From: Candidatus Aphodosoma sp.
GTDB lineage: Bacteria > Bacteroidota > Bacteroidia > Bacteroidales > Paludibacteraceae
Direction: 5' to 3'
NCBI GenBank assembly: GCA_045635445.1
Contig: JAZRCE010000014.1
Location: 1 to 37,610, forward strand
Length of the DNA: 37,610 bases
Position 1 is the first letter of the stretch. Each line of letters starts with the position of its first letter. This document shows, in pieces, positions 545 through 37,610 of the stretch. A program made the position numbers and the translations under genes. The notes beneath the pieces are model-generated. The model was given only the letters and a program-made list of their open reading frames with translations. It did no database searches and was not told where the DNA came from.

Positions 545-615
545 AAAATCATTTACTAATATATGAAATTGAACATTTGCATAGCATAATGTTTCACATC
601 AGAACATTTAAGATT

Positions 616-3381
616 ATGATAAAAAGATTACTAAGCGCATTAAGCATAATTTTGTTATGCGTGCTTGTAAATGCACAAGTAACAACCGACCCAGCTTTTA
701 TCCAAAAAGGCTATAAAGGCGAAATAATCGTGACCTTCAACCCTGCCGAAGGAAACAAAGGTATGGTGGGAGCCACAGAATGTTATGCTCACACAGGTCT
801 TATCACATCAAAAAGTGCTTCTGGTAGCGACTGGAAATACGCAACACAAAAATGGCGTGGCGGCGAAGATAAATACAAAATGACTAAAAATGGCGATGTT
901 TGGACATTGACTATTCCTAACATCTACGAATACTACGGATGCCCTGAATCTGAAGAAATTTTGAAAATGGCATTTGTGTTCAACAATGGCCCTCAAACCA
1001 ATGCATCAAACGAAAAAGAGGGTAAAACAGCTGATGGTTCTGACATTTTTGTTGAATTAGTAGAAGCTGGATTGAACGTAAAATTCGAAACTCCTGCAAA
1101 CAATCAATTGGTAAATGTAGGCACAACAACCAACTTCAAATTATCCGCATCAGAAAATAGCTCTATTTCATTATTTATCAACGACAAAGAGATTAAAACT
1201 GAAGTAGGCACCGAACTTACAATCAATCATACATTCACTGCTATTGGCGACTACACTTGTGTTGCAAAAGCAGAGAGCGAAGGTGCTACCGACTACGACA
1301 CTATCTTCATATGCGTAGCATCAGGTCCAATAAACGCAGCTCGCCCTGAAGGTTTGCAAGATGGTATCACATACTACGACGACGATGCTACAAAAGTAAC
1401 TTTGTCGCTCTACAGCAAAAACAATAGTGGCAAAATATCACAAAATGTGTTCGTACTTGGCGACTTCAACAATTGGTCTTACTCAACCGATTATCAAATG
1501 AAAAAAGATGGCGAAACAGGCTATTTCTGGCTCGACATTACAGGTCTAGAACCTGGCAAAGAGTATGTTTTCCAATATGCTATCAAACGTCCTGACGGTT
1601 CGATAGTTCAAATCTCTGACGCATACACTCATAAAACCGTAGACCCTAACGACCACTACATCCCAGAAGATATATACCCAAATCAATTGATGTACCCTGC
1701 AGCTGCTGATGGTCCTTGCGCCGTTATACAAACTGGTCGCAAAGAGTTTGAATGGTCTGATGCTACACTCAACTTCAAACGTCCTAACAAAAACAACTTG
1801 GTTATTTATGAAATTTGGGCTTACGACTTCTCGCCTCTCCGCTCATTTGATGCTATCACAAAACGTTTGGATTATATCGAAAACCTTGGCGTAAACGCAA
1901 TTGAATTTATGCCTATCAGCGAATTCGAAGGCAACATTTCTTGGGGATATAACCCAACTCACTATTTTGCACTCGACAAAGCTTATGGCACACCGGAATC
2001 ATTTAAAACTTTGGTTGACGAATGTCATAAACGTGGCATCGCAGTGATTATCGACATGGTATTCAACCATGCTACAGGTTGGGCTCCGTTCAACAAAATG
2101 TTCCCTCTAGCCGAAAACCCTTATTTCAACGTCACTCCTCCTCACGGCGACAACGTATTCGAAGATTGGAATCATGACTGCGAAGGCACACGCAACATGT
2201 TCCACCGCACACTTAAATATTGGTTAGAAGAATATAAAATCGACGGTTATCGTATGGACTTAGCACATGGTCTATGCGGCAAAAGTTGTGAAAACTACGG
2301 CAACCAACACATACTCGAAGATTACTATGCAAATAGCATTAAAGCCATAAGCGAAGACGCTTATTTCATTCTCGAACATTGGAATCGTTGGAGCGAACAA
2401 TCAGCTCTAATTAGCAAAGGTATGATGTGCTGGGACAACACAAGTCATGCTTACTACGAACTTGCAATGGGATGGTACGATGGTTCTAATAGTAGTGCTC
2501 TTAACAATGCAAATAGAGACAATTATGTGTCATACGCCGAATCACACGACGAAGAACGTTGTCAATATAAAGCCATCCAATATGGCAATGGAGATATAAA
2601 AACAAACAAAGAAACTCGTCTCAGTCGCGTGGCTTCTTATGTTGCAATGAGCACAATGTTGAATGGTCCTCAAATGATCTGGATGTTCGAAGAGATTGGA
2701 TACGACATATCAATCGATCAAAATGGTCGTACAGGTAGCAAACCAGTACCTGAGGCAGAAAAATACTATGTTGATCCTAGTCGCATGAATCAATATCAAA
2801 TTATTGGACAAATTAACCAATTACGCACACGCATATTACCTCAAATATTCGAAGGTAATCCAACATCTCAAGATTTAGCACACAGACGTCCTATACGTAG
2901 TGTTATTTGGGGAGAAGGTATAAACCGCATGTTTATCGTGTCAAACGTTAGCACAACAACACAAGAAATATCATTACCTGAAGGAACGACTAATTGGTAT
3001 GATTATCTCACCAATAGTACAAATACGATATCGGCTGGCACTAAAATAACAATGAAAGCTGGAGAAGTGAAAGTGTATACAGCACAATACATTCCACTAC
3101 CTACCGTACCAAATAAATATACACCAGAAGATTTTACTGCTATAGATAATATTGAATTCAAAACCAATTGCATCATCTACCCTACTATTTCGGAAGACAT
3201 TATTTTCATTGAAACAACAGAAGATGTTAAATCAGTAGAAATAATAAACATTAGTGGTCAAAAAATGATGAGCGAAAACAACGTAAATTCAATCAATATT
3301 TCGTCATTACCACAAGGATTATATATGCTTATTGTAAACTTGGACAAAACACAAGAGGCGTATAAAATCTATCGCAAATAA
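616..3381 (+). CDS. Secreted multidomain GH13 alpha-amylase-family glycosidase with T9SS C-terminal sorting domain
   Basis: GH13 conserved regions are present: 'VIIDMVFNHA' (I), 'GYRMDLAHG' (II), 'ILEHW' (III) and 'YAESHDE' (IV). The track start at 577 is a TTG; the ATG at 616 gives the signal peptide MIKRLLSALSIILLCVLVNAQ. The last ~70 aa ('IYPTISEDIIFIE...LPQGLYMLIV...KIYRK') resemble a Por/T9SS secretion tail. Confidence 0.85.
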   Translation: MIKRLLSALSIILLCVLVNAQVTTDPAFIQKGYKGEIIVTFNPAEGNKGMVGATECYAHTGLITSKSASGSDWKYATQKWRGGEDKYKMTKNGDVWTLTIPNIYEYYGCPESEEILKMAFVFNNGPQTNASNEKEGKTADGSDIFVELVEAGLNVKFETPANNQLVNVGTTTNFKLSASENSSISLFINDKEIKTEVGTELTINHTFTAIGDYTCVAKAESEGATDYDTIFICVASGPINAARPEGLQDGITYYDDDATKVTLSLYSKNNSGKISQNVFVLGDFNNWSYSTDYQMKKDGETGYFWLDITGLEPGKEYVFQYAIKRPDGSIVQISDAYTHKTVDPNDHYIPEDIYPNQLMYPAAADGPCAVIQTGRKEFEWSDATLNFKRPNKNNLVIYEIWAYDFSPLRSFDAITKRLDYIENLGVNAIEFMPISEFEGNISWGYNPTHYFALDKAYGTPESFKTLVDECHKRGIAVIIDMVFNHATGWAPFNKMFPLAENPYFNVTPPHGDNVFEDWNHDCEGTRNMFHRTLKYWLEEYKIDGYRMDLAHGLCGKSCENYGNQHILEDYYANSIKAISEDAYFILEHWNRWSEQSALISKGMMCWDNTSHAYYELAMGWYDGSNSSALNNANRDNYVSYAESHDEERCQYKAIQYGNGDIKTNKETRLSRVASYVAMSTMLNGPQMIWMFEEIGYDISIDQNGRTGSKPVPEAEKYYVDPSRMNQYQIIGQINQLRTRILPQIFEGNPTSQDLAHRRPIRSVIWGEGINRMFIVSNVSTTTQEISLPEGTTNWYDYLTNSTNTISAGTKITMKAGEVKVYTAQYIPLPTVPNKYTPEDFTAIDNIEFKTNCIIYPTISEDIIFIETTEDVKSVEIINISGQKMMSENNVNSINISSLPQGLYMLIVNLDKTQEAYKIYRK

Positions 3382-8478: not shown

Positions 8479-9431
8479 TTAGTTTTTCTTGAAAAATAGA
8501 GAGGGGTTAGTAAGTTTTGAGAATAATGGTATTTTTAAAAGTAAACCGATTACTATCATAATTAGCAAAACATATGCTATAGCGGCACCAAATGATGTTG
8601 GTAATCCAAATTTAGTAACAATCTTCATTAATATATAGATGATAAAAGCGTGATAGATGTAATATTGTATTGTTAATTTACCTTGTTTAGCAATCCACAT
8701 ATTTGTAGGGCATAAATTCATAAATGCAATAGACATAGGGATGCTTAATCCATAAATTAATATTCTACAATATACATAAAATGGGTTATTATAAGGTTCA
8801 GCTTGATTTAAATCGCCTAGGTATTGTGGGAAAAATATTGGTATTAAAATAGTAAATAATAAAAATAAAGCGCATACTATTTTATATTTTGAAGGAAGGA
8901 ATAAATTTTTACCTCTCATATAGTACCCTATAAAAAAGAATGGCATAAAAGAAAATGTTCATTGTAAAGATAATAATCTATTAAATGGTAAAAAACCAGC
9001 AAGTAGGCCTATACAGAATGCACATAGTAAAACTAGTTTTTTATTGTTGAGTATTTTATTAGGAATAATTTGAAGTATTGTCCTCCAATAGAGTAAACTA
9101 AGCAAATACCATAGAACCCACCATGGAGTTAGCATACTACTTACTGATATTGTACCTGATATGATAAATTGGAAGGAACGAATGATTAGTTGAAAAATTA
9201 ACAATGGTTCTGTTAGTTTCCAGCAACTTAGAAAAAATGATTTATTATCTTTCTTACAAGAAAAATAACCTGATAAGAAAATAAAAATGGCATATGGAAC
9301 ATGTATATCCAATGCCATACAATTGTACAGGTATTTATTGGAGAAAATTGGTTTTGTGAAAATACGTGGCCTATAATGACTAAAGTTATTAGCCAAAATT
9401 TAACTGAATCTATATTTTCATTGCGTATCAT
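8479..9431 (-). pseudogene. Acyltransferase family 3 (OafA/fucose 4-O-acetylase-like) membrane protein, disrupted
   Basis: Three track ORFs (9431-9228, 9396-8959, 8946-8479) together make one acyltransferase-3 protein. The N-terminus is 'IDSVKFWLITLVIIGHVF' and 'FHMP' continues in another frame as 'IFIFLSGYF'. This implies a 1-nt indel at the T5 run near 9283-9288. An in-frame TGA at 8959-8961 sits inside '...LLSLQ*TFSFMPFFFIGYYMRG'. Confidence 0.75.
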
Positions 9432-9442
9432 AGTTTATTTTG

Positions 9443-9450
9443 CAAAGATA
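9443..9450 (-). promoter_or_regulatory. Possible -7 promoter box (TATCTTTG) for the acyltransferase pseudogene
   Basis: The reverse complement of caaagata is TATCTTTG, matching TAnnTTTG 12 nt upstream of the ATG at 9431. No clear -33 element. Confidence 0.35.
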
Positions 9451-9571
9451 CATATTTTTTTAGAAATAATAAAATTATTTTTTTCTAAATTGTAGTAAAA
9501 ATGATAATATAGTTTCGATTAACTAAATATTATTAATTAATTTTCTTGGTATAAAAAATAACAAAAAACAT

Positions 9572-9602
9572 TTTGTTATATCAGAAAAAAGCAGTAACTT
9601 TG
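9572..9602 (+). promoter_or_regulatory. Promoter of tRNA-Lys (-33 TTTG, -7 TAACTTTG)
   Basis: TTTG at 9572-9575 and TAACTTTG at 9595-9602 with a 19-nt spacer, about 22 nt upstream of the tRNA 5' end. Confidence 0.55.
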
Positions 9603-9623
9603 CAGTCGCAAAAATAAAGGGAT

Positions 9624-9696
9624 GTATCCGTAGCTCAGTTGGTAGAGCAATTGACTCTTAATCAATGGGTCGAGGGTTCGAGCCCCTCCGGGTATA
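9624..9696 (+). tRNA. tRNA-Lys (anticodon CTT)
   Basis: Manual cloverleaf: D arm GCTC-AGTTGGTA-GAGC, anticodon arm ATTGA-CTCTTAA-TCAAT, variable loop GGGTC, T arm GAGGG-TTCGAGC-CCCTC. The acceptor GTATCCG/CGGGTAT contains G1-U72 and U4-G69 wobble pairs. No encoded CCA. Confidence 0.85.
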
Positions 9697-9702
9697 CAGA
9701 AG

Positions 9703-9740
9703 ATAAGGACAACTTCGGGATGAGGTTGTCCTTATTTTTT
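9703..9740 (+). terminator. Rho-independent terminator of tRNA-Lys
   Basis: Stem ataaggacaac / gttgtccttat followed by T6. Confidence 0.75.
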
Positions 9741-9864
9741 ATTGCAAAGGTAAGGTGAAAGTAAGGTTATCCTATGAAGAAGGTAAGAAGAAGGTAAGGA
9801 AAATATAGAGTTTAGGAAAGTTGATTTGAATTGGTATTTTTTAGATTTTTTAGCAATATTTGAA

Positions 9865-9896
9865 TTTGGATATTCAAATATTTTTTATTATCTTTG
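9865..9896 (+). promoter_or_regulatory. Promoter of gpmI (-33 TTTG, -7 TATCTTTG)
   Basis: TTTG at 9865-9868 and TATCTTTG at 9889-9896 with a 20-nt spacer. An 11-bp inverted repeat overlaps it. Confidence 0.5.
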
Positions 9897-9993
9897 CGTG
9901 TTATATTATACATAAAACAAAATCAATTATTAACTCAATATTTAGGCGGTTAATTCGTTGTAATACTGCCATTTAACACTTAGTATTAGAAAT

Positions 9994-11511
9994 ATGAATA
10001 AAGCACTTTTGATGATTCTCGATGGATGGGGAATCGGTAATGGAACAAAATCTGACGTAATTGCACAAATGCCAACTCCTTATTGGGACTCTTTGTTGGC
10101 TAAATATCCTCATTCTCAGCTACAAGCATCGGGCGAATATGTAGGACTTCCTGATGGACAAATGGGTAACTCGGAAGTAGGTCACTTGAATATTGGCGCT
10201 GGTCGCATTGTGTATCAAGACTTGGTGAAAATCAATCGCGCTTGTGCGGATAATTCTATTCTTGAAAATAAAGCTATTAAAAAGGCGTTTGAGTTTGCTA
10301 AAGCTAATGGCGGTGATGTTCACTTTATGGGATTGACTTCAGATGGTGGTGTGCACTCTTCGTTGGTTCACTTATTTAAATTGTGCGATATTGCAAAACA
10401 TTATGGTTTGGCTAACCACTATGTTCACTGCTTTATGGATGGTCGTGATACTGACCCTCGTTCGGGTAAAGGTTTTATTGCTCAATTGGAAGAACATTTG
10501 GCTACTACTGGAGGTAAGATTGCATCTATCATTGGTCGCTACTATGCTATGGACCGAGACAAACGTTGGGAACGCGTGAAAATTGCTTATGATTTGTTGG
10601 TGAATGGCGTGGGTGAAGCTACGGTGAATACTGTTGACGCTGTACAAAAATCATATGACAATGAGGTGACTGATGAGTTCATCAAACCTATCGTACACGT
10701 AGATGGCGAAGGACGACCAGTGGCTACTATCAAAGATGGCGACGTGGTGATTTTCTTCAACTATCGCAACGACCGTGCTAAAGAATTGACTCAAGTGTTG
10801 ACTCAAAAAGATATGCCAGAAGAGGGAATGAAAACATTGAAGTTGGACTACTACTGTATGACTCCATACGATGCTTCATTTACAGGTGTAAATATTATTT
10901 TCGACAAAGAGAATGTGGAAAACACATTGGGCGAAGTGGTGTCGAAAGCTGGCGCACGTCAGTTGCACATTGCTGAAACTGAAAAATATGCTCACGTTAC
11001 GTTCTTCCTCAATGGTGGTCGTGAAACTCCATACGAAAACGAAGACCGTATTTTGATTAACTCGCCTAAAGTGGCTACATACGATTTGCAACCTGAGATG
11101 TCGGCATTCGAAGTGGCAGATGCGCTTGCGGCAGAATTGGCTAAAGAGACTTACGATTTGGCAATTGTGAACTTTGCAAATGGCGATATGGTTGGTCACA
11201 CTGGTGTATATGAAGCAATTGAAAAAGCAGTGGTTACAATTGATAAATGCGTAGAACAAGTGGTGGAAACTGCCCGTGCTCACGGATATCAAACTATTAT
11301 TATTGCAGACCACGGCAATGCAGACAATGCAATGAATGCTGATGGTTCGGCTAATACAGCACACTCGTTGAACCCAGTGCCATTTGTATTCGTATCAGAC
11401 ACATACAAAGGCGAAGTGAAAGATGGTATTTTGGCAGACGTGGCTCCATCGATATTGAAAGTGATGGGCATTGAAACTCCTGCAGATATGACAGGTAACT
11501 CTTTGATTTAA
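9994..11511 (+). CDS. gpmI: 2,3-bisphosphoglycerate-independent phosphoglycerate mutase
   Basis: 505 aa. 'LMILDGWG', '[14 protein letters not shown]', '[13 protein letters not shown]', 'FMDGRDT' and 'ADHGNA' are hallmark iPGM motifs. Confidence 0.95.
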
Positions 11512-33404: not shown

Positions 33405-34214
33405 TCACAACGTCCAATCTTGCATATTATCTTCACCCTCTATCTTATTTTCCACATCATCAGGTAAAGCATAAAACAAATCAATATTTGCCATATTCTC
33501 AATTTCATCAATAGTTCTGATGTAATACAATATTGGTTTCGATCCTGCTACATTTTCACACACAAAACCAATTGTAGTCCACGAATCACCTTTTTTTCGT
33601 AATATCGCTTTATAGAAAGCATCAGGTATAGCAATACGCTGATAATTACCCATATACTCTGGTTTATCAGCCACTATCGGACCACAAACTACATATACCG
33701 ACTCATATCGTTGTGCATAATCTCTCACCAACTCTTCTATATCATTCCAATCCCCACGATTAAGATTTGCATTTTGTGGACAAATATTTGTTGTATAAAA
33801 CGACTCCTTCATCGCCTGTTCACTCCATTTCATATCAGCCGCAGGAGCCATATGTCCTCTATCATATTTACCAGGATTGTTCGTATAATCCTTATGCACC
33901 ACAGCATTACCTTTTACTTTAGGGTCAGGCGAGAAACCATTACAACGTTCCACCTCGCCCATTGTTTCCTGTTTAGTCAATTCATAAGCTACCCAATTAG
34001 GCAATTTCCAATCATCATTATAGCTCACAGCATACGCCAAATGACTAATAACCTGCGACTTCCGGCCATCTATTACCTTCGCAAGTTTTGTCTCTTCAAC
34101 AATTGAGTTCTCTGTTGATTTAGTCTGAGTTTGAGATATAGGTTCCGACCGAGTCCATGCAAACAACCCAATACCACATAAAAGTACGACAAATAAAAAC
34201 AATTTCGACTTCAT
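33405..34214 (-). CDS. Secreted DNA/RNA non-specific endonuclease (Serratia NucA / Endonuclease_NS family)
   Basis: Signal peptide. The catalytic 'YDRGHMAPAADM' (DRGH motif) and 'NICPQNANLNRGDW' (metal-binding Asn) are diagnostic. Confidence 0.85.
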   Translation of the reverse strand: MKSKLFLFVVLLCGIGLFAWTRSEPISQTQTKSTENSIVEETKLAKVIDGRKSQVISHLAYAVSYNDDWKLPNWVAYELTKQETMGEVERCNGFSPDPKVKGNAVVHKDYTNNPGKYDRGHMAPAADMKWSEQAMKESFYTTNICPQNANLNRGDWNDIEELVRDYAQRYESVYVVCGPIVADKPEYMGNYQRIAIPDAFYKAILRKKGDSWTTIGFVCENVAGSKPILYYIRTIDEIENMANIDLFYALPDDVENKIEGEDNMQDWTL

Positions 34215-34236: not shown

Positions 34237-34267
34237 CAAAGTTACAACTTTTCTTCCAACTAACAAA
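34237..34267 (-). promoter_or_regulatory. Promoter of the nuclease-TPR unit (-7 TAACTTTG, -33 TTTG)
   Basis: Minus-strand TAACTTTG (34237-34244) and TTTG (34264-34267) with a 19-nt spacer, 23 nt upstream of the ATG at 34214. Confidence 0.5.
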
Positions 34268-34277
34268 AATATATCGT

Positions 34278-34308
34278 AAAAAAAGTTGACCAAAACAACT
34301 TGATCAAC
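34278..34308 (-). terminator. Rho-independent terminator ending the upstream envelope-protein operon
   Basis: Minus strand: GTTGATCAA-gttgtt-TTGGTCAAC (9 bp, one G-U) followed by T7. Confidence 0.7.
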
Positions 34309-34341
34309 CTTTTCTTTATTTCATTTATCACCAAAGCCAAT

Positions 34342-34623
34342 CTAAACAAAACAACGCCTCACCTTAATATATTTCCCATATTCACGACGAGCCGGAATTA
34401 ATACATTATCAATAAGAGCCTGCAAATTTTCCTCAACACCAGCATTTTCAGGAGTATTATCTATAGAATAACAAAGAGCAGTCCAACTGAAACACAACTC
34501 CTCAACCTCAAAGCAAGGAATATCTAACCAAACCTTAAATTCTTGTTCTATCCTATTATAATTCCAAGCAATTAAACCAATAATCAAGGCACCAAATAAA
34601 ACAACTATCAACCATCTCTTCAT
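34342..34623 (-). CDS. Small membrane-anchored protein resembling the N-terminal half of an M15 (Peptidase_M15_3-type) cell-wall peptidase; probable gene remnant
   Basis: N-terminal TM 'WLIVVLFGALIIGLIAW'. 'FEVEELCFSWTALCYSIDNTPENAGVEENLQALIDNVLIPARREYGKYIKV' follows the F..eF..S.TA...IdN.P...NL..L...L.P.R...G..I.V pattern. The ORF stops where SGxR and the Zn-ligand His/Asp motifs should follow. No continuation in any frame. Confidence 0.4.
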   Translation of the reverse strand: MKRWLIVVLFGALIIGLIAWNYNRIEQEFKVWLDIPCFEVEELCFSWTALCYSIDNTPENAGVEENLQALIDNVLIPARREYGKYIKVRRCFV

Positions 34624-34632
34624 AATAAAACA

Positions 34633-34923
34633 TTATTTCTTCCTCAACGCTAAAATAAGCAATAATATTGCAACAATAATATCTACCACTAACCAAATTT
34701 CTCTTCCCAAAGCAAATTTAATAAATGGTTGAAACAACAAAGCTATAACCAAAAAAGTTATAGCCAATTGCTGTTTCTTTTTATTATAATAATTATACGC
34801 TAAATATCCTGCTATAATAGTAGTAGCAACTCTAACAATCATATAAAAGCCATAAGGCATTGGCAAAATGCATAACAACAAAATTATTGCACCAACTATC
34901 TGAATTTTTTGTTGTGTTGTCAT
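34633..34923 (-). CDS. Small integral membrane protein (3-4 TM), unknown function
   Basis: About 96 aa, highly hydrophobic ('IVGAIILLLCILPMPYGFYMIVRVATTIIAGYLAY...LLFQPF...IWLVVDIIVAILLLILAL'). The track start at 34929 is a GTG; an ATG lies at 34923. Confidence 0.55.
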   Translation of the reverse strand: MTTQQKIQIVGAIILLLCILPMPYGFYMIVRVATTIIAGYLAYNYYNKKKQQLAITFLVIALLFQPFIKFALGREIWLVVDIIVAILLLILALRKK

Positions 34924-34935
34924 ATTCACAAAATA

Positions 34936-35325
34936 TTATTCATCATAATCTTCTCCGTCATCCAATGTAGTCCCAAGTTCTTCCATAAAACCTTCAAGCG
35001 CACCTTCAAACATTTTCATTTGAGTTTCAAATTCATCCATAGTTTTATTTAGATACTCTTTAGATATTTTTGCAAACAGTCGTCCCTTCAGTTTTCCAAT
35101 CTGGTGCAACTCCTCATCAGTATAATCATACATAGAAAGCTCTTGTTCTATTTGTTCATATTCCATCATTGCATTTTCCCAATCTTGTTCAGTAAACGAT
35201 TCTGATTTTTGCACCAATGCTCTATCCAATTTTTCTAATTTTTTAATTGGAGTTTGTTTATTTTCACAAGAAGAAAAAAGAAAGACACACGCCAATAAAT
35301 AAACAAAAATTTTAAAAATTTTCAT
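34936..35325 (-). CDS. Small acidic lipoprotein, unknown function
   Basis: Lipobox 'LFSSC'. 129 aa, predicted helical, with the acidic tail 'DDGEDYDE'. Confidence 0.55.
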   Translation of the reverse strand: MKIFKIFVYLLACVFLFSSCENKQTPIKKLEKLDRALVQKSESFTEQDWENAMMEYEQIEQELSMYDYTDEELHQIGKLKGRLFAKISKEYLNKTMDEFETQMKMFEGALEGFMEELGTTLDDGEDYDE

Positions 35326-35343
35326 AACTATAAAATTTAAAAG

Positions 35344-36078
35344 TTATTCTAAAACCCCAGGTTTTGGTACAATATGTATCACAAAACGCTGATTATCTGA
35401 CTCATTTTTTTCTCTAAACTCACTAAACACACCACTACCTGACACTATTAACTCAAATGGAAGATCTTCTTTTACCTTAAATCCATTTGCTTTAGACTCA
35501 AATAAAATTCCGCGTTTCTTCCAATAATTAACTAAAGCCAAAGCTCTTTCATAACTTAATTCATTATTTCTAGAATAAGCATCCTTAGAAGCTTGCCCTT
35601 CCACAATCAAAAGATACTCTGCCCCAGGAATATCTTTTTGTGCATCTAGCATAAAGTTATGTATTGCATAGCCAACAGAATCCAACTTTAATCTTGTATT
35701 TTGCGATATTGTTTTAGCATAAATATTACTTTCCCCTCTTTCAAAAGATACTTTAATATCCTCTTTTAATGTATGCCTCTTAAAGTTAGAGTTATAAACA
35801 AAAAACCTATCATCTATTTTTTCAATAGAAGCATTAAGTTGCTTAATTTTATTAAGTTCTTCTTCTGTTGCTCTTAACAATTCTACCAAATCTTTTTTTT
35901 GTTTTTCTATAATCTCCTGTTTTGTTATTAACTCATCTATCAATTCTTTTATATCTTTAGTTTTAACAAAAACTAAAACAATAGATAAAACAAATAATAC
36001 TAACATTACAAAAAACAAACTGGACATAAAATCAGAATATGTCGTCCAAAAATAGGATGTATTTTTTACTTTTCTCAT
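35344..36078 (-). CDS. MotB-plug/OmpA-like inner-membrane protein (paralog 2, 244 aa)
   Basis: N-terminus 'YFWTTYSDFMSSLFFVMLVLFVL' resembles the MotB/PomB/ZorB TM segment with its conserved Asp (compare MotB 'YADFMT'). A coiled-coil stretch follows. The C-terminal OmpA-like domain has 'LLIVEGQASKD...ELSYERALALVNYW...NQRFVIHIV' (compare GHTD...LSxxRA...NRRVEI). Confidence 0.65.
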   Translation of the reverse strand: MRKVKNTSYFWTTYSDFMSSLFFVMLVLFVLSIVLVFVKTKDIKELIDELITKQEIIEKQKKDLVELLRATEEELNKIKQLNASIEKIDDRFFVYNSNFKRHTLKEDIKVSFERGESNIYAKTISQNTRLKLDSVGYAIHNFMLDAQKDIPGAEYLLIVEGQASKDAYSRNNELSYERALALVNYWKKRGILFESKANGFKVKEDLPFELIVSGSGVFSEFREKNESDNQRFVIHIVPKPGVLE

Positions 36079-36084
36079 TACCTA

Positions 36085-36885
36085 TTACTTATAAATTTGC
36101 TCCCAATGCCAAGACTGATTCGAGTACATATATATATCAAATACATTTGATTTAACTGTATAATTTTGCCCTATATGTTTCTTTCCTTCACCCCAATCCA
36201 TGCTTAACCACACCCTGCCATTATCCGAAGTTGTATATATTCGAGAAACAAATTCAGATGAATGTTTCTTTACTTTATTTAAAATTTCATTTTCCGAACC
36301 CAAATTGGTTACATCAAGTTCAGCATAGGCATGTCCAGGCACTGTAACAATACGAGCATTTCCTCCAACAGCCATCATTAGCGATGCTACCAAAACAGCA
36401 AAATCATCACAATCTCCTCGCAAATTAGCACAAATTGTCTCAGATGCAGATGCCACATACTCTTGATCTACAGGATCGTTCACATATCCCCAACGACTCT
36501 TACAATAAGAATATATTTCACACGCCTGTTCAATACTGAAATTTCCAGGAAAACGAGCTGCTATATCTGCGGCAAATTTACGCGTATAAACCCTATTAAA
36601 ATCACAAGCCTCATATAACATATTTTCATTCATTTTTCCATCTGTATACCAATAAGAATATTTACGTTCGCTTGATGGACATTCTGGTAAAAATATACTA
36701 TCTTTTTCATATACAAATACAGTATCCCTCTTTACCAAAACATCAGGGTCGTAAATAGGTCTCTTATTACCAATAACAATAGCATTTCTTATTTTCCTAT
36801 TTTCTATTTTTGGTTTTGGATTCTCAATACAAGATACAAATGAAATTACGATAAAAACAACTAATAAAAAAACTTTATGTTTCAT
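36085..36885 (-). CDS. Transglutaminase-like cysteine peptidase-fold lipoprotein
   Basis: ATG 36885 gives MKHKVFLLVVFIVISFVSC (lipobox); the track start at 36897 is a TTG. The Cys-His-Asp core 'RGDCDDFAVLVASLMMAVGGNARIV', 'PGHAYAEL' and 'VWLSMDWG' is as in Transglut_core proteins. Confidence 0.65.
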   Translation of the reverse strand: MKHKVFLLVVFIVISFVSCIENPKPKIENRKIRNAIVIGNKRPIYDPDVLVKRDTVFVYEKDSIFLPECPSSERKYSYWYTDGKMNENMLYEACDFNRVYTRKFAADIAARFPGNFSIEQACEIYSYCKSRWGYVNDPVDQEYVASASETICANLRGDCDDFAVLVASLMMAVGGNARIVTVPGHAYAELDVTNLGSENEILNKVKKHSSEFVSRIYTTSDNGRVWLSMDWGEGKKHIGQNYTVKSNVFDIYMYSNQSWHWEQIYK

Positions 36886-36889
36886 AAGA

Positions 36890-37513
36890 TTATTCAATTA
36901 TTCCTGGTTTAGGTACTATGTGTATTACAAATCGTTGATTTTTCTTGTTTCCAGCATTATCTGGTTTTACTCTAAACTTACTAGATTGACCACTTCCTGA
37001 TATAATTACCTCGCAAGGTAAACCATCGAAAGTGATGCCATTTAAACTCCAAAATTGGACTAAAGATAAAGCTCTTTCATAACTTAAACGATAATTATAT
37101 CGATAATTATCCTTAGATGATTGACCTTCAACAATCAATAAATATTTAGCTGATGGCAATTCTTTTTGAGCCTCTTTCATAAATGTTACAATAGCTTGCC
37201 CTGCTTTCTTTAAATGCTCCCTATCATTAGGGTCTATATCCTCAATATTAGAACTATTAACATTAAATGAAACTTGAATATTTTTCAATGTATGTCGTTT
37301 ATAATCTGAATCATATTCAAAATATGTCGAGTCTATTTTTTCAATAGATTCATTGATTTCTTTTATTTTTTTTAATTCTGTTTCTGTTGCATTAATTCGT
37401 TTAAATAATAGAACTATAGACAACACAAACAAAACTAACATTACGAAAAACAAACACGACATAAAATCCGAATATGTCGTCCAAAAATATGCCGTTTTTT
37501 TAGTTTGCTCCAT
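36890..37513 (-). CDS. MotB-plug/OmpA-like inner-membrane protein (paralog 1, 207 aa)
   Basis: 'YFWTTYSDFMSCLFFVMLVLFVL' TM with Asp, a short coiled coil, then an OmpA-like domain 'LLIVEGQSSKD...RLSYERALSLVQFW...NQRFVIHIV'. The N- and C-termini are nearly identical to the 35344-36078 product. Confidence 0.65.
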   Translation of the reverse strand: MEQTKKTAYFWTTYSDFMSCLFFVMLVLFVLSIVLLFKRINATETELKKIKEINESIEKIDSTYFEYDSDYKRHTLKNIQVSFNVNSSNIEDIDPNDREHLKKAGQAIVTFMKEAQKELPSAKYLLIVEGQSSKDNYRYNYRLSYERALSLVQFWSLNGITFDGLPCEVIISGSGQSSKFRVKPDNAGNKKNQRFVIHIVPKPGIIE

Positions 37514-37515
37514 TA

Positions 37516-37610
37516 TTAATTAAGAACTAAAGCTAAAATATTAAAAACAATATAAGCAATACAAGTAAAAACAATAAGACCTAAAAAGATAAATATAACG
37601 ATTTTACCCC
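37516..37610 (-). CDS. 3' end of an unidentified membrane-protein gene running off the window
   Basis: Not in the ORF track. My translation of the minus strand is ...GKIVIFIFLGLIVFTCIAYIVFNILALVLN*, with TAA at 37516-37518 only 2 nt before the ATG of the MotB-like gene. The sequence is hydrophobic and looks like a terminal TM helix. Confidence 0.4.
   Translation of the reverse strand, partial: GKIVIFIFLGLIVFTCIAYIVFNILALVLN

Follow-up and report, generated by a model that had tools for sequence, protein, structure and literature searches.

The genes considered here form a minus-strand block at the end of a 37,610-nucleotide stretch of Candidatus Aphodosoma sp. DNA (contig JAZRCE010000014.1), referred to below as the window. 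The closest described systems are the Zorya systems and the operons built around FtsZl1/Tubulin_2 GTPases. In the ZorB subunit of Zorya, the transmembrane (TM) helix continues directly into the peptidoglycan-binding domain, with neither a plug nor a linker of the MotB kind, and the Asp of the subunit is essential (Hu et al., PMC11946911). A portable module whose tail is specific to its partner is the logic of the Zorya types (PMC11890865). FtsZl1 operons were predicted computationally by Makarova and Koonin in 2010 (PMC2875224), and that paper includes Bacteroides caccae among the species of its FtsZl1 alignment. In the years since 2010 no function has been assigned to the FtsZl1/Tubulin_2 family. 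A 2023 survey of FtsZ/tubulin proteins refers to nothing but the 2010 prediction for it, and no experimental work on it was found in the full-text literature (bioRxiv lay outside the search). A role in conflict was proposed for tubulin-vWA-(HSP70) assemblies by Kaur, Burroughs, Iyer and Aravind in 2020 (PMC7159879).

The block is the distal (3') part of a roughly 12-gene Bacteroidales operon whose signature genes C and D lie beyond the window. We hold with high confidence that it represents the 3' half of a conserved operon consisting of core genes A to G and a variable slot for exported hydrolases. This operon belongs to the FtsZl1 type of the 2010 prediction, and its proteins F and G are a ZorAB-like pair.

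The ZorAB-like pair

Both MotB-like proteins of the block, of 207 and 244 amino acids (aa), are ZorB-type stator subunits. They are paralogues with 51% identity (E 1e-77), and their best PADLOC matches are ZorB models. The best matches among Protein Data Bank (PDB) sequences are the ZorB chains 8qyd_F and 8vvn_B, aligned across the transmembrane motif FW.(S/T)Y(S/A)D(F/L)M. In the AlphaFold2 (AF2) model of the 207-aa protein (predicted local distance difference test, pLDDT, 81.7), an uninterrupted helix, residues 5-57, runs from the membrane into the OmpA-like domain. The top Foldseek match of this model is E. coli ZorB (8qyd_F, E 3e-7, query TM-score, TMq, 0.69) over its full length; the second full-length match is Shewanella ZorB (8vvn_A, TMq 0.68), and there are no others. 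Pal, YfiB and periplasmic MotB/PomB fragments match the C-terminal domain only (TMq 0.35-0.44). Asp16 in the TM helix, and Asp135 and Arg147, the peptidoglycan-contacting residues of the OmpA-like domain, are invariant in a 14-sequence alignment. The initial annotation had read these proteins as a MotB/OmpA-like pair with a MotB-type TM segment carrying a proton-relay Asp, and the helix is indeed of the MotB/ZorB type and joined to a peptidoglycan-binding domain.

The absence of a plug sets the pair apart from flagellar stators. With Pfam MotB_plug, a match is seen in the 244-aa protein only, and its 16.1 bits stay below the cut-off of 24. Because there is no plug and the modelled helix is uninterrupted, the proteins do not belong to a flagellar stator (MotAB/PomAB). 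Bacteroidales are known to lack flagella, and no flagellar rotor genes were seen among the window genes (no dedicated search was made for them). The family profile of the ZorB-like proteins matches 696 clusters among 1.84 billion representatives, and the family is therefore small and discrete, not generic OmpA or MotB. An exact-sequence lookup of the 207-aa protein returned no match, and its genomic context was taken from a 95%-identical homologue.

A single MotB-like gene is core to the operon. A second full-length copy is present in 4 of the 52 related loci, and the idea that the operon is built around two MotB-like subunits must be given up. Where ZorB-like paralogues are paired, one is always short and the other long: 207/244, 216/250, 198/241 and 207/228 aa (window, L011, L035 and L046). 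The main site of the length difference was mapped in the window pair, where the helix that links the TM segment to the OmpA-like domain is longer by about 37 residues in the 244-aa copy. Such short and long pairs suggest heterodimers or two reach lengths.

The partner of these subunits is encoded by the gene truncated at the window edge. The open reading frame (ORF) at 37516-37608 translates to GKIVIFIFLGLIVFTCIAYIVFNILALVLN followed by a stop, which matches the C-terminus of P0121, a 483-aa protein in locus L001. This locus is a contig of a Candidatus Aphodosoma metagenome-assembled genome (MAG), and its MotB-like protein is 95% identical to that of the window. A sequence-only PDB search with the ZorA-like profile was swamped by coiled-coil noise, so that a fold search was needed. 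With the AF2 model of P0121 (pLDDT 71.5), the first 47 Foldseek hits are all ExbB, TolQ or ZorA, at a probability of ~1.0 and target TM-scores (TMt) of 0.4-0.57. At the level of family models, Pfam MotA_ExbB matches 3 of 36 members of the protein F family (best E 1e-5), PADLOC ZorA matches are weak (E 6e-4 to 3e-3), and NCBIfam gives no match. The MotA/ExbB/ZorA-type partner that the initial annotation expected is thus present, and the partial membrane protein at the edge is its C-terminal TM helix.

The ZorA-like family bears the signature PLYLGLxGTMxGI...AxAMIxSxxG, in which Thr120 is invariant and Ser165 nearly so. By analogy, these residues may parallel the Thr147/Ser184 ion filter of ZorA (PMC11946911). 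Behind the TM core lies a predicted helical tail of ~270-300 residues, whose middle part is modelled with low confidence. The tail terminates in a TM helix in 38 of the 52 operon-class copies, whereas canonical ZorA is without such a helix.

The pair resembles Zorya in each subunit and in its use. In the B subunit, one TM helix with an Asp runs on as a continuous helix, without a plug, to an OmpA-like peptidoglycan-binding domain; the A subunit joins a TM core of the MotA/ExbB type to a tail predicted to be long and helical; and the motor pair is combined with exchangeable partner modules. It differs in that the tail of protein F is shorter and, in the operon class, ends in a TM helix. Its partners here are a GTPase of the tubulin type and an ATPase of the ASKHA type, and the candidate effectors are exported lipoproteins. 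No PADLOC match to ZorC/D, ZorE or ZorF/G was obtained among the window proteins and the upstream proteins of L001 and L002. The lineage is also different, being Bacteroidales here; in PMC11946911 and PMC11890865 the string 'Bacteroid' occurs only in the title of one reference, on the type IX motor. Since ZorC/D, ZorE and ZorF/G are missing and the scores fall far below curated cut-offs, the pair is not a member of Zorya types I-III. A published link between ZorAB, or a Zorya-type motor, and tubulin-like systems was not found, with bioRxiv and the supplements of PMC2875224 outside the search.

The operon and its variable slot

Relatives of the ZorB-like protein were sought in one genome per GTDB species and were present in 203 of 185,579 species genomes, which makes the family small and patchy. 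The best 80 loci were mapped by iterated hidden Markov model searches that started from proteins encoded in L001, L002 and the window, and 79 of them are non-redundant. Nearly all of the inspected best 80 loci are from Bacteroidales or Bacteroidia. The upstream signature genes (C or D) occur in 52 of the 79, the complete A-to-G order (A, B, C, D, F and the MotB-like gene) in 43, and F and G remain adjacent in ~70. Cultivable carriers of the operon include Bacteroides muris, Lepagella muris, Prevotellamassilia timonensis and Parabacteroides distasonis. The contigs of L013, L047, L021 and L064 were binned into MAGs named Bacilli, Acutalibacteraceae and Holosporaceae. L021 and L047 hold the full operon, and L013 holds the DarT form described below. 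These assignments probably reflect mis-binning, not cross-phylum transfer.

Conservation on this scale bears on whether there is a system at all. The block could consist of ordinary OmpA-family paralogues and unrelated lipoproteins that lie together by chance, with no motor, an outcome that the initial annotation had itself foreseen. Such a coincidence would agree with sub-threshold Pfam scores for OmpA (22.5 bits for the MotB-like proteins) and MotB_plug, and with the confinement of the exact MotB-transglutaminase-MotB arrangement to the closest relatives. It is scarcely credible in the face of the F-G adjacency and the A-to-G order. Moreover, a motor is indicated by the Asp that never varies in the TM helix, by the match to ZorB over the full length and by the ExbB/ZorA fold of the adjacent protein, and the family profile does not draw in generic OmpA or MotB. 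Conservation of the MotB-transglutaminase-MotB arrangement holds for the closest relatives and not more widely; the F-G pair and the core order are conserved.

The core begins with protein A, a lipoprotein of 400-470 aa, followed by protein B, a small protein with 3-4 TM segments. Protein C is the GTPase. It belongs to the FtsZl1 family because the Tubulin_2 threshold is passed (Table 1) and because CetZ and FtsZ, aligned at the GGTG loop, are the only PDB matches of its profile. The operon of the window organism presumably carries the same gene, judging from the 95%-identical locus L001. Protein D, of ~1100 aa, contains DFGTTNT and DIGGGTTD motifs, and its profile matches MreB (1.7e-4) and Hsc70 (1e-3) at the phosphate-binding motifs. 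These motifs and matches identify an ATPase domain of the actin/Hsp70 (ASKHA) fold. The N-terminal half of protein D (L001:4138-5800, ~550 aa) is strongly conserved, with SIPSPFARIDLVKTAF and IGATSPxTLFF, and has no Pfam, NCBIfam, PADLOC or PDB sequence match. Protein E stands for one or two variable membrane proteins with a TM segment, whose length and copy number vary. The ZorA-like F and ZorB-like G are the last core genes, and the variable hydrolase slot follows them.

Searches of PADLOC, NCBIfam and Pfam returned nothing for proteins A, B, D and E, and NCBIfam has no model for any of proteins A to F. Protein A has the conserved motifs ENSGSM...TTD...SD, which look like a metal-ion-dependent adhesion site (MIDAS); profiles leave a vWA domain unconfirmed. 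In L001, protein E (L001:7443-8534) and the acidic lipoprotein J (L001:12206-12595) are each split into two ORFs, which could be decay or an assembly error. The window's acidic lipoprotein is intact, unlike the split L001 copy.

PMC2875224 describes FtsZl1 operons in which a divergent FtsZ/tubulin GTPase stands beside membrane proteins, periplasmic proteins and 'OmpA-like' peptidoglycan-binding proteins, and the present operon is alike in these parts. In that text the OmpA-like proteins are taken as outer-membrane proteins, not stator subunits; MotA, MotB and Hsp70 are not mentioned, and nothing is said of a variable slot for hydrolases. Frequent in those operons, though not universal, is a P-loop GTPase and/or Ser/Thr kinase, which has no counterpart here: neither was seen among the operon proteins, in which the tubulin-like protein is the sole GTPase found. 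A vWA component is also part of FtsZl1 operons in that text, whereas the vWA nature of protein A is unconfirmed by profiles. Like this operon, the assemblies of PMC7159879 bring together a homologue of tubulin, a protein of the HSP70 fold, components close to the membrane and effectors that vary. They differ in being centred on paired TRAFAC GTPases and GAP1 (DO-GTPase/GAP1); their tubulin and HSP70 themes come from Firmicutes and Actinobacteria, and the paper contains no mention of MotA, MotB or ExbB. The initial annotation recognised no described system in these genes. This stands insofar as the 2010 paper did not read the OmpA-like genes as stators, and does not stand for the operon type, which that paper already predicts.

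The census of the slot covers 105 proteins encoded after the MotB-like gene. Among them are 19 trypsin/HtrA-like proteins, 12 retropepsin-like aspartic proteases, 11 Endonuclease_NS proteins, 5 DUF6804 proteins, 4 transglutaminase-like proteins, 3 TPR proteins and 2 staphylococcal-nuclease-like proteins. Nearly all slot proteins have a lipobox or signal sequence, including 18 of the 19 trypsin-like, 8 of the 11 Endonuclease_NS and all 4 transglutaminase-like proteins. The transglutaminase-like lipoprotein of the window, whose gene type is found in 4 of the 52 related loci, has the lipobox VSC and intact triad motifs GDC163DDFA, PGH189AYAE and LSMD234W (Cys163, His189 and Asp234). With this Cys-His-Asp triad intact, it is one of several alternative exported hydrolases. 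In the window it shares the slot with the duplicated ZorB-like gene and two small accessory envelope proteins.

A further exported enzyme of the window, the Endonuclease_NS protein, is encoded beyond the terminator hairpin. Its homologues lie 1-3 genes after the MotB-like gene or genes, in a co-directional run, in 10 of the 52 loci. The nuclease gene is probably another member of the hydrolase slot, the second in this window, with a transcript of its own. Since Endonuclease_NS and TPR families lie inside the operon elsewhere, the hairpin bounds a transcript, not the functional neighbourhood. The terminator-bounded operon of the initial annotation therefore has a real terminator at a place that is not its functional boundary. 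The 129-aa acidic lipoprotein has homologues 3' of the MotB-like gene in 8 of the 52 loci and matches no family in Pfam, PADLOC or NCBIfam.

Exported degradative enzymes that differ among loci, small envelope proteins behind them and a patchy distribution could also mark a locus of interbacterial antagonism or toxin immunity. The exported nucleases and proteases would then be effectors released with the help of the ion-driven module, and the 129-aa, DUF6804 and 93-aa proteins would be immunity or accessory factors. This explanation is improbable. Family scans of the operon and slot proteins recognised no secretion apparatus, toxin-delivery domain or polymorphic-toxin architecture, the gene maps show that the small proteins do not follow particular hydrolase types, and the hydrolases resemble periplasm-facing lipoproteins.

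Sibling contexts and purpose

The F-G pair also occurs apart from the operon. In 12 loci it lies behind a DarT ADP-ribosyltransferase (Pfam E 4.5e-30) and a DUF6939/NADAR-like protein (E 2.6e-68). The hosts of this cassette are Bacteroides xylanisolvens XB1A, B. bouchesdurhonensis, Phocaeicola, Parabacteroides, Alistipes, Prevotella and Barnesiella, and the cassettes adjoin integrase, Mob_Pre relaxase or toprim/AAA/DUF3853 genes. In a RefSeq record of Parabacteroides, DarT is named 'DUF4433 domain-containing protein' and the other three cassette genes 'hypothetical protein'. The four-gene cassette looks like an undescribed Zorya-like/DarT hybrid. Its ZorB-like proteins are 60-62% identical to that of the window; its ZorA-like proteins have the TM core alone in common (31% over 214 aa) and are without the C-terminal TM helix. 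A lone F-G pair is found in three loci (L029, L031 and L032, around 8570-10650), which have no A-E genes within 10 kb upstream and adjoin housekeeping genes or a PDDEXK transposase. No DarT was seen in L029 and L031 among the two adjacent upstream genes scanned. The operon, DarT and lone contexts together indicate that the pair is a module that can be moved from one setting to another and whose tail differs with the partner.

Gene content, order and conservation, folds, conserved residues, export signals and the association of the DarT cassettes with mobile elements are directly established, and a mechanism may be sketched on this ground. F and G probably form a 5:2 inner-membrane complex (F5G2). 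G would be tethered to peptidoglycan through its OmpA-like domain, ion flow through the conserved Asp16 would drive or gate the movement of F, and the membrane-returning helical tail of F would pass this movement to the cytoplasmic GTPase C and ATPase D. The purpose would be that of a Zorya-like envelope conflict system, anti-phage or anti-invader, which would respond to disturbance of the envelope by deploying or activating proteases and nucleases in the periplasm. This purpose is preferred because the pair is of the Zorya type, the variable slot looks like one for effectors, the distribution is patchy, a sibling form is linked to DarT and PMC7159879 proposes conflict systems of similar make-up, and the preference is tentative, falling short of even confidence. 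For the explanation taken as a whole, identity, mechanism and purpose together, confidence is middling. The initial annotation had suggested a machine that is driven by ions and serves Zorya-like defence or remodelling in place of a flagellum, and this is the direction in which the evidence points.

Several points weigh against the conflict reading. The 5:2 stoichiometry, the ion flow and the coupling to C and D are all carried over from homologues. NCBIfam anti-phage_ZorB1 scores 34.3 bits against a curated cut-off of 400, and among the window proteins and the upstream proteins of L001 and L002 no component besides F and G matches any PADLOC model. Protein A has no Pfam VWA match in 24 members and no PDB match up to E = 10. 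Zorya effectors act in the cytoplasm, but almost every hydrolase of the slot is an exported lipoprotein. Around related loci, 123 flanking proteins yield ~10 matches to the defence families listed, a count without a baseline, and these matches are scattered (PDC-S01, AbiE, a reverse transcriptase and MkoA). The module is essentially absent from phages, and the rest of the window is ordinary Bacteroidales chromosome with housekeeping genes.

Part of this evidence speaks for a different machine. The operon resembles Tol-Pal and the divisome in having a tubulin-fold GTPase, an actin-fold ATPase, an ExbB/TolQ-fold channel and an OmpA-like peptidoglycan binder. It could thus be a 'mini-divisome' for membrane remodelling, vesiculation or secretion that pinches or reshapes the envelope, with the hydrolases as cargo or remodelling enzymes. 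The parallel of its parts to FtsZ, FtsA, TolQ and TolR-Pal is our own analogy; remodelling was proposed for FtsZl1 operons by Makarova and Koonin in PMC2875224. Exported lipoproteins would fit cargo better than they fit cytoplasmic effectors, and the housekeeping chromosomal context with its weak defence-island signal agrees with such a role. However, there is no sequence-level orthology to Tol-Pal or divisome proteins. The ZorB-like subunit bears the peptidoglycan-binding domain on its own chain, in place of TolR and a separate Pal, and the operon is accessory and patchy, not universal. F and G are closer to Zorya proteins than to TolQR, and the same pair is joined to a DarT toxin module on mobile elements. 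Patchy distribution and fast turnover of the hydrolase slot are more typical of conflict systems. The mature lipoproteins are also mostly without the acidic surface-export signal of Bacteroides vesicle cargo, as judged by eye from few N-termini. A remodelling machine is the main rival, somewhat less likely than the conflict system.

The conflict reading can be extended to a previously unrecognised class of envelope-spanning machine. A peptidoglycan-anchored Zorya-type motor would be coupled mechanically, by a coiled-coil tail that returns to the membrane, to a polymerising tubulin-like GTPase and an actin/Hsp70-fold ATPase, and would trigger or place periplasmic hydrolases against invaders. 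The ZorAB-like pair would be a portable sensor that is also plugged into DarT-NADAR cassettes. This extension is less likely than not. The link of FtsZl1/Tubulin_2 to a Zorya-type motor, an ASKHA ATPase and exchangeable exported hydrolases gives a concrete, testable model. Cultivable gut Bacteroidales carry both forms, the DarT form being present in B. xylanisolvens XB1A. As a defence system, the operon would widen Zorya-like sensing to include periplasmic effectors and the phylum that dominates the gut. As a remodelling machine, it would give bacteria a second, accessory tubulin/actin/Tol-like apparatus.

Layout and surroundings of the block

Table 1. Locations of the block genes, neighbouring elements of the window and reference features of related loci (L001, L027 and others are loci of the survey; amino acids, aa; transmembrane, TM)
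Feature	Location	Strand	Basis
ZorA-like (MotA/ExbB/TolQ-family) gene, last 30 codons and stop	37516-37610	-	C-terminal TM helix; rest beyond window
ZorB-like stator subunit 1, 207 aa	36890-37513	-	PADLOC ZorB E 5e-12; 8qyd_F top match
Transglutaminase-like (papain-fold) lipoprotein, 270 aa	36085-36897	-	Pfam Transglut_core E 6.8e-8, 33.2 bits vs cut-off 23
ZorB-like stator subunit 2, 244 aa	35344-36078	-	PADLOC ZorB E 1e-10; paralogue of subunit 1
Acidic lipoprotein, 129 aa	34936-35325	-	Lipobox; 29 D+E vs 15 K+R
DUF6804 3-TM protein, 98 aa	34633-34929	-	Pfam DUF6804 E 3.3e-29; 8/52 loci
93-aa ORF with N-terminal TM helix	34342-34623	-	Sole homologue in near-identical locus L003
Intrinsic-terminator-like hairpin	34276-34315	-	17-bp A/U-rich stem, then U7
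Bacteroides-type promoter motif TTTG-N19-TAACTTTG	34237-34267	-	Between hairpin and Endonuclease_NS gene
Exported Endonuclease_NS with DRGH motif	33405-34214	-	Pfam E 5.4e-52
Secreted TPR protein, 554 aa	31720-33384	-	TPR Pfam matches; near operon in 5/52 loci
Protein C, FtsZl1/Tubulin_2 GTPase	L001:2706-4133		Pfam Tubulin_2 30.4 bits vs cut-off 27
Four-gene cassette DarT, DUF6939/NADAR-like, ZorA-like, ZorB-like	L027:6499-10621 (B. xylanisolvens XB1A); L087:5499-9621
Further DarT-cassette loci	L014-L019, L023, L025, L026, L028

The ORF list of the window places six complete ORFs and one truncated ORF in the region 34342-37610, with intergenic spacings along the block of 2, -8, 6, 18, 6 and 9 nucleotides. 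The -8 spacing becomes +4 if the transglutaminase gene begins at its first ATG. The initial annotation had described seven tightly packed genes ending at a clean terminator, and apart from one of them its descriptions agree with Table 1, including those of a transglutaminase-like lipoprotein, an acidic lipoprotein and a small multi-TM protein. The RNA of the hairpin (34278-34315) has a fold energy of -17.4 kcal/mol (z = -3.87), and 1 of 200 shuffles was equally stable. The hairpin was overlooked by a generic terminator scan because its stem is A/U-rich.

The exception is the 93-aa ORF, which had been taken for a remnant of an M15 peptidase. This reading was rejected, as no M15 similarity was present in Pfam, NCBIfam or PDB sequences. 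The ORF has no match in Pfam or NCBIfam at E <= 0.1 and none in PADLOC, and the PDB at E <= 10 gave only unrelated proteins. The suggestion that the block is AT-rich relative to its neighbours fared no better. The mean GC of the block genes is 0.306, against 0.345 +/- 0.046 for the remaining window genes, and several of these are as AT-rich as the block genes. A compositional island was rejected because the block falls within one standard deviation of the other genes.

The promoter motif TTTG-N19-TAACTTTG follows the Bacteroides promoter consensus. It occurs 9 times in the window against 2.2 +/- 1.4 expected, with several occurrences just 5' of gene starts.

An origin of the block in a prophage, phage or plasmid was considered and rejected. 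INPHARED gave no match, and a single match was found in 2.9 million IMG/VR contigs. The only PLSDB record with a relative holds the DarT form, not the FtsZl1-type operon. The IMG/VR contig (L088, IMGVR_UViG_7000000200_000241) has ORFs of 152-464-1157-305-501-210 aa, which agree with the operon in size and order. It may be a fragment next to a prophage or have been called viral in error.

Other genes of the window encode a Clp ATPase, iPGM, SurA-like peptidyl-prolyl isomerases, an OstA-like protein, FTHFS, an MBOAT protein, an EngB-type GTPase and an amylase with a type IX secretion system (T9SS) signal. The last of these, an alpha-amylase/CBM48 protein encoded on the plus strand at 577-3381, ends in a T9SS sorting domain (Por_Secre_tail) and is unrelated to the operon.

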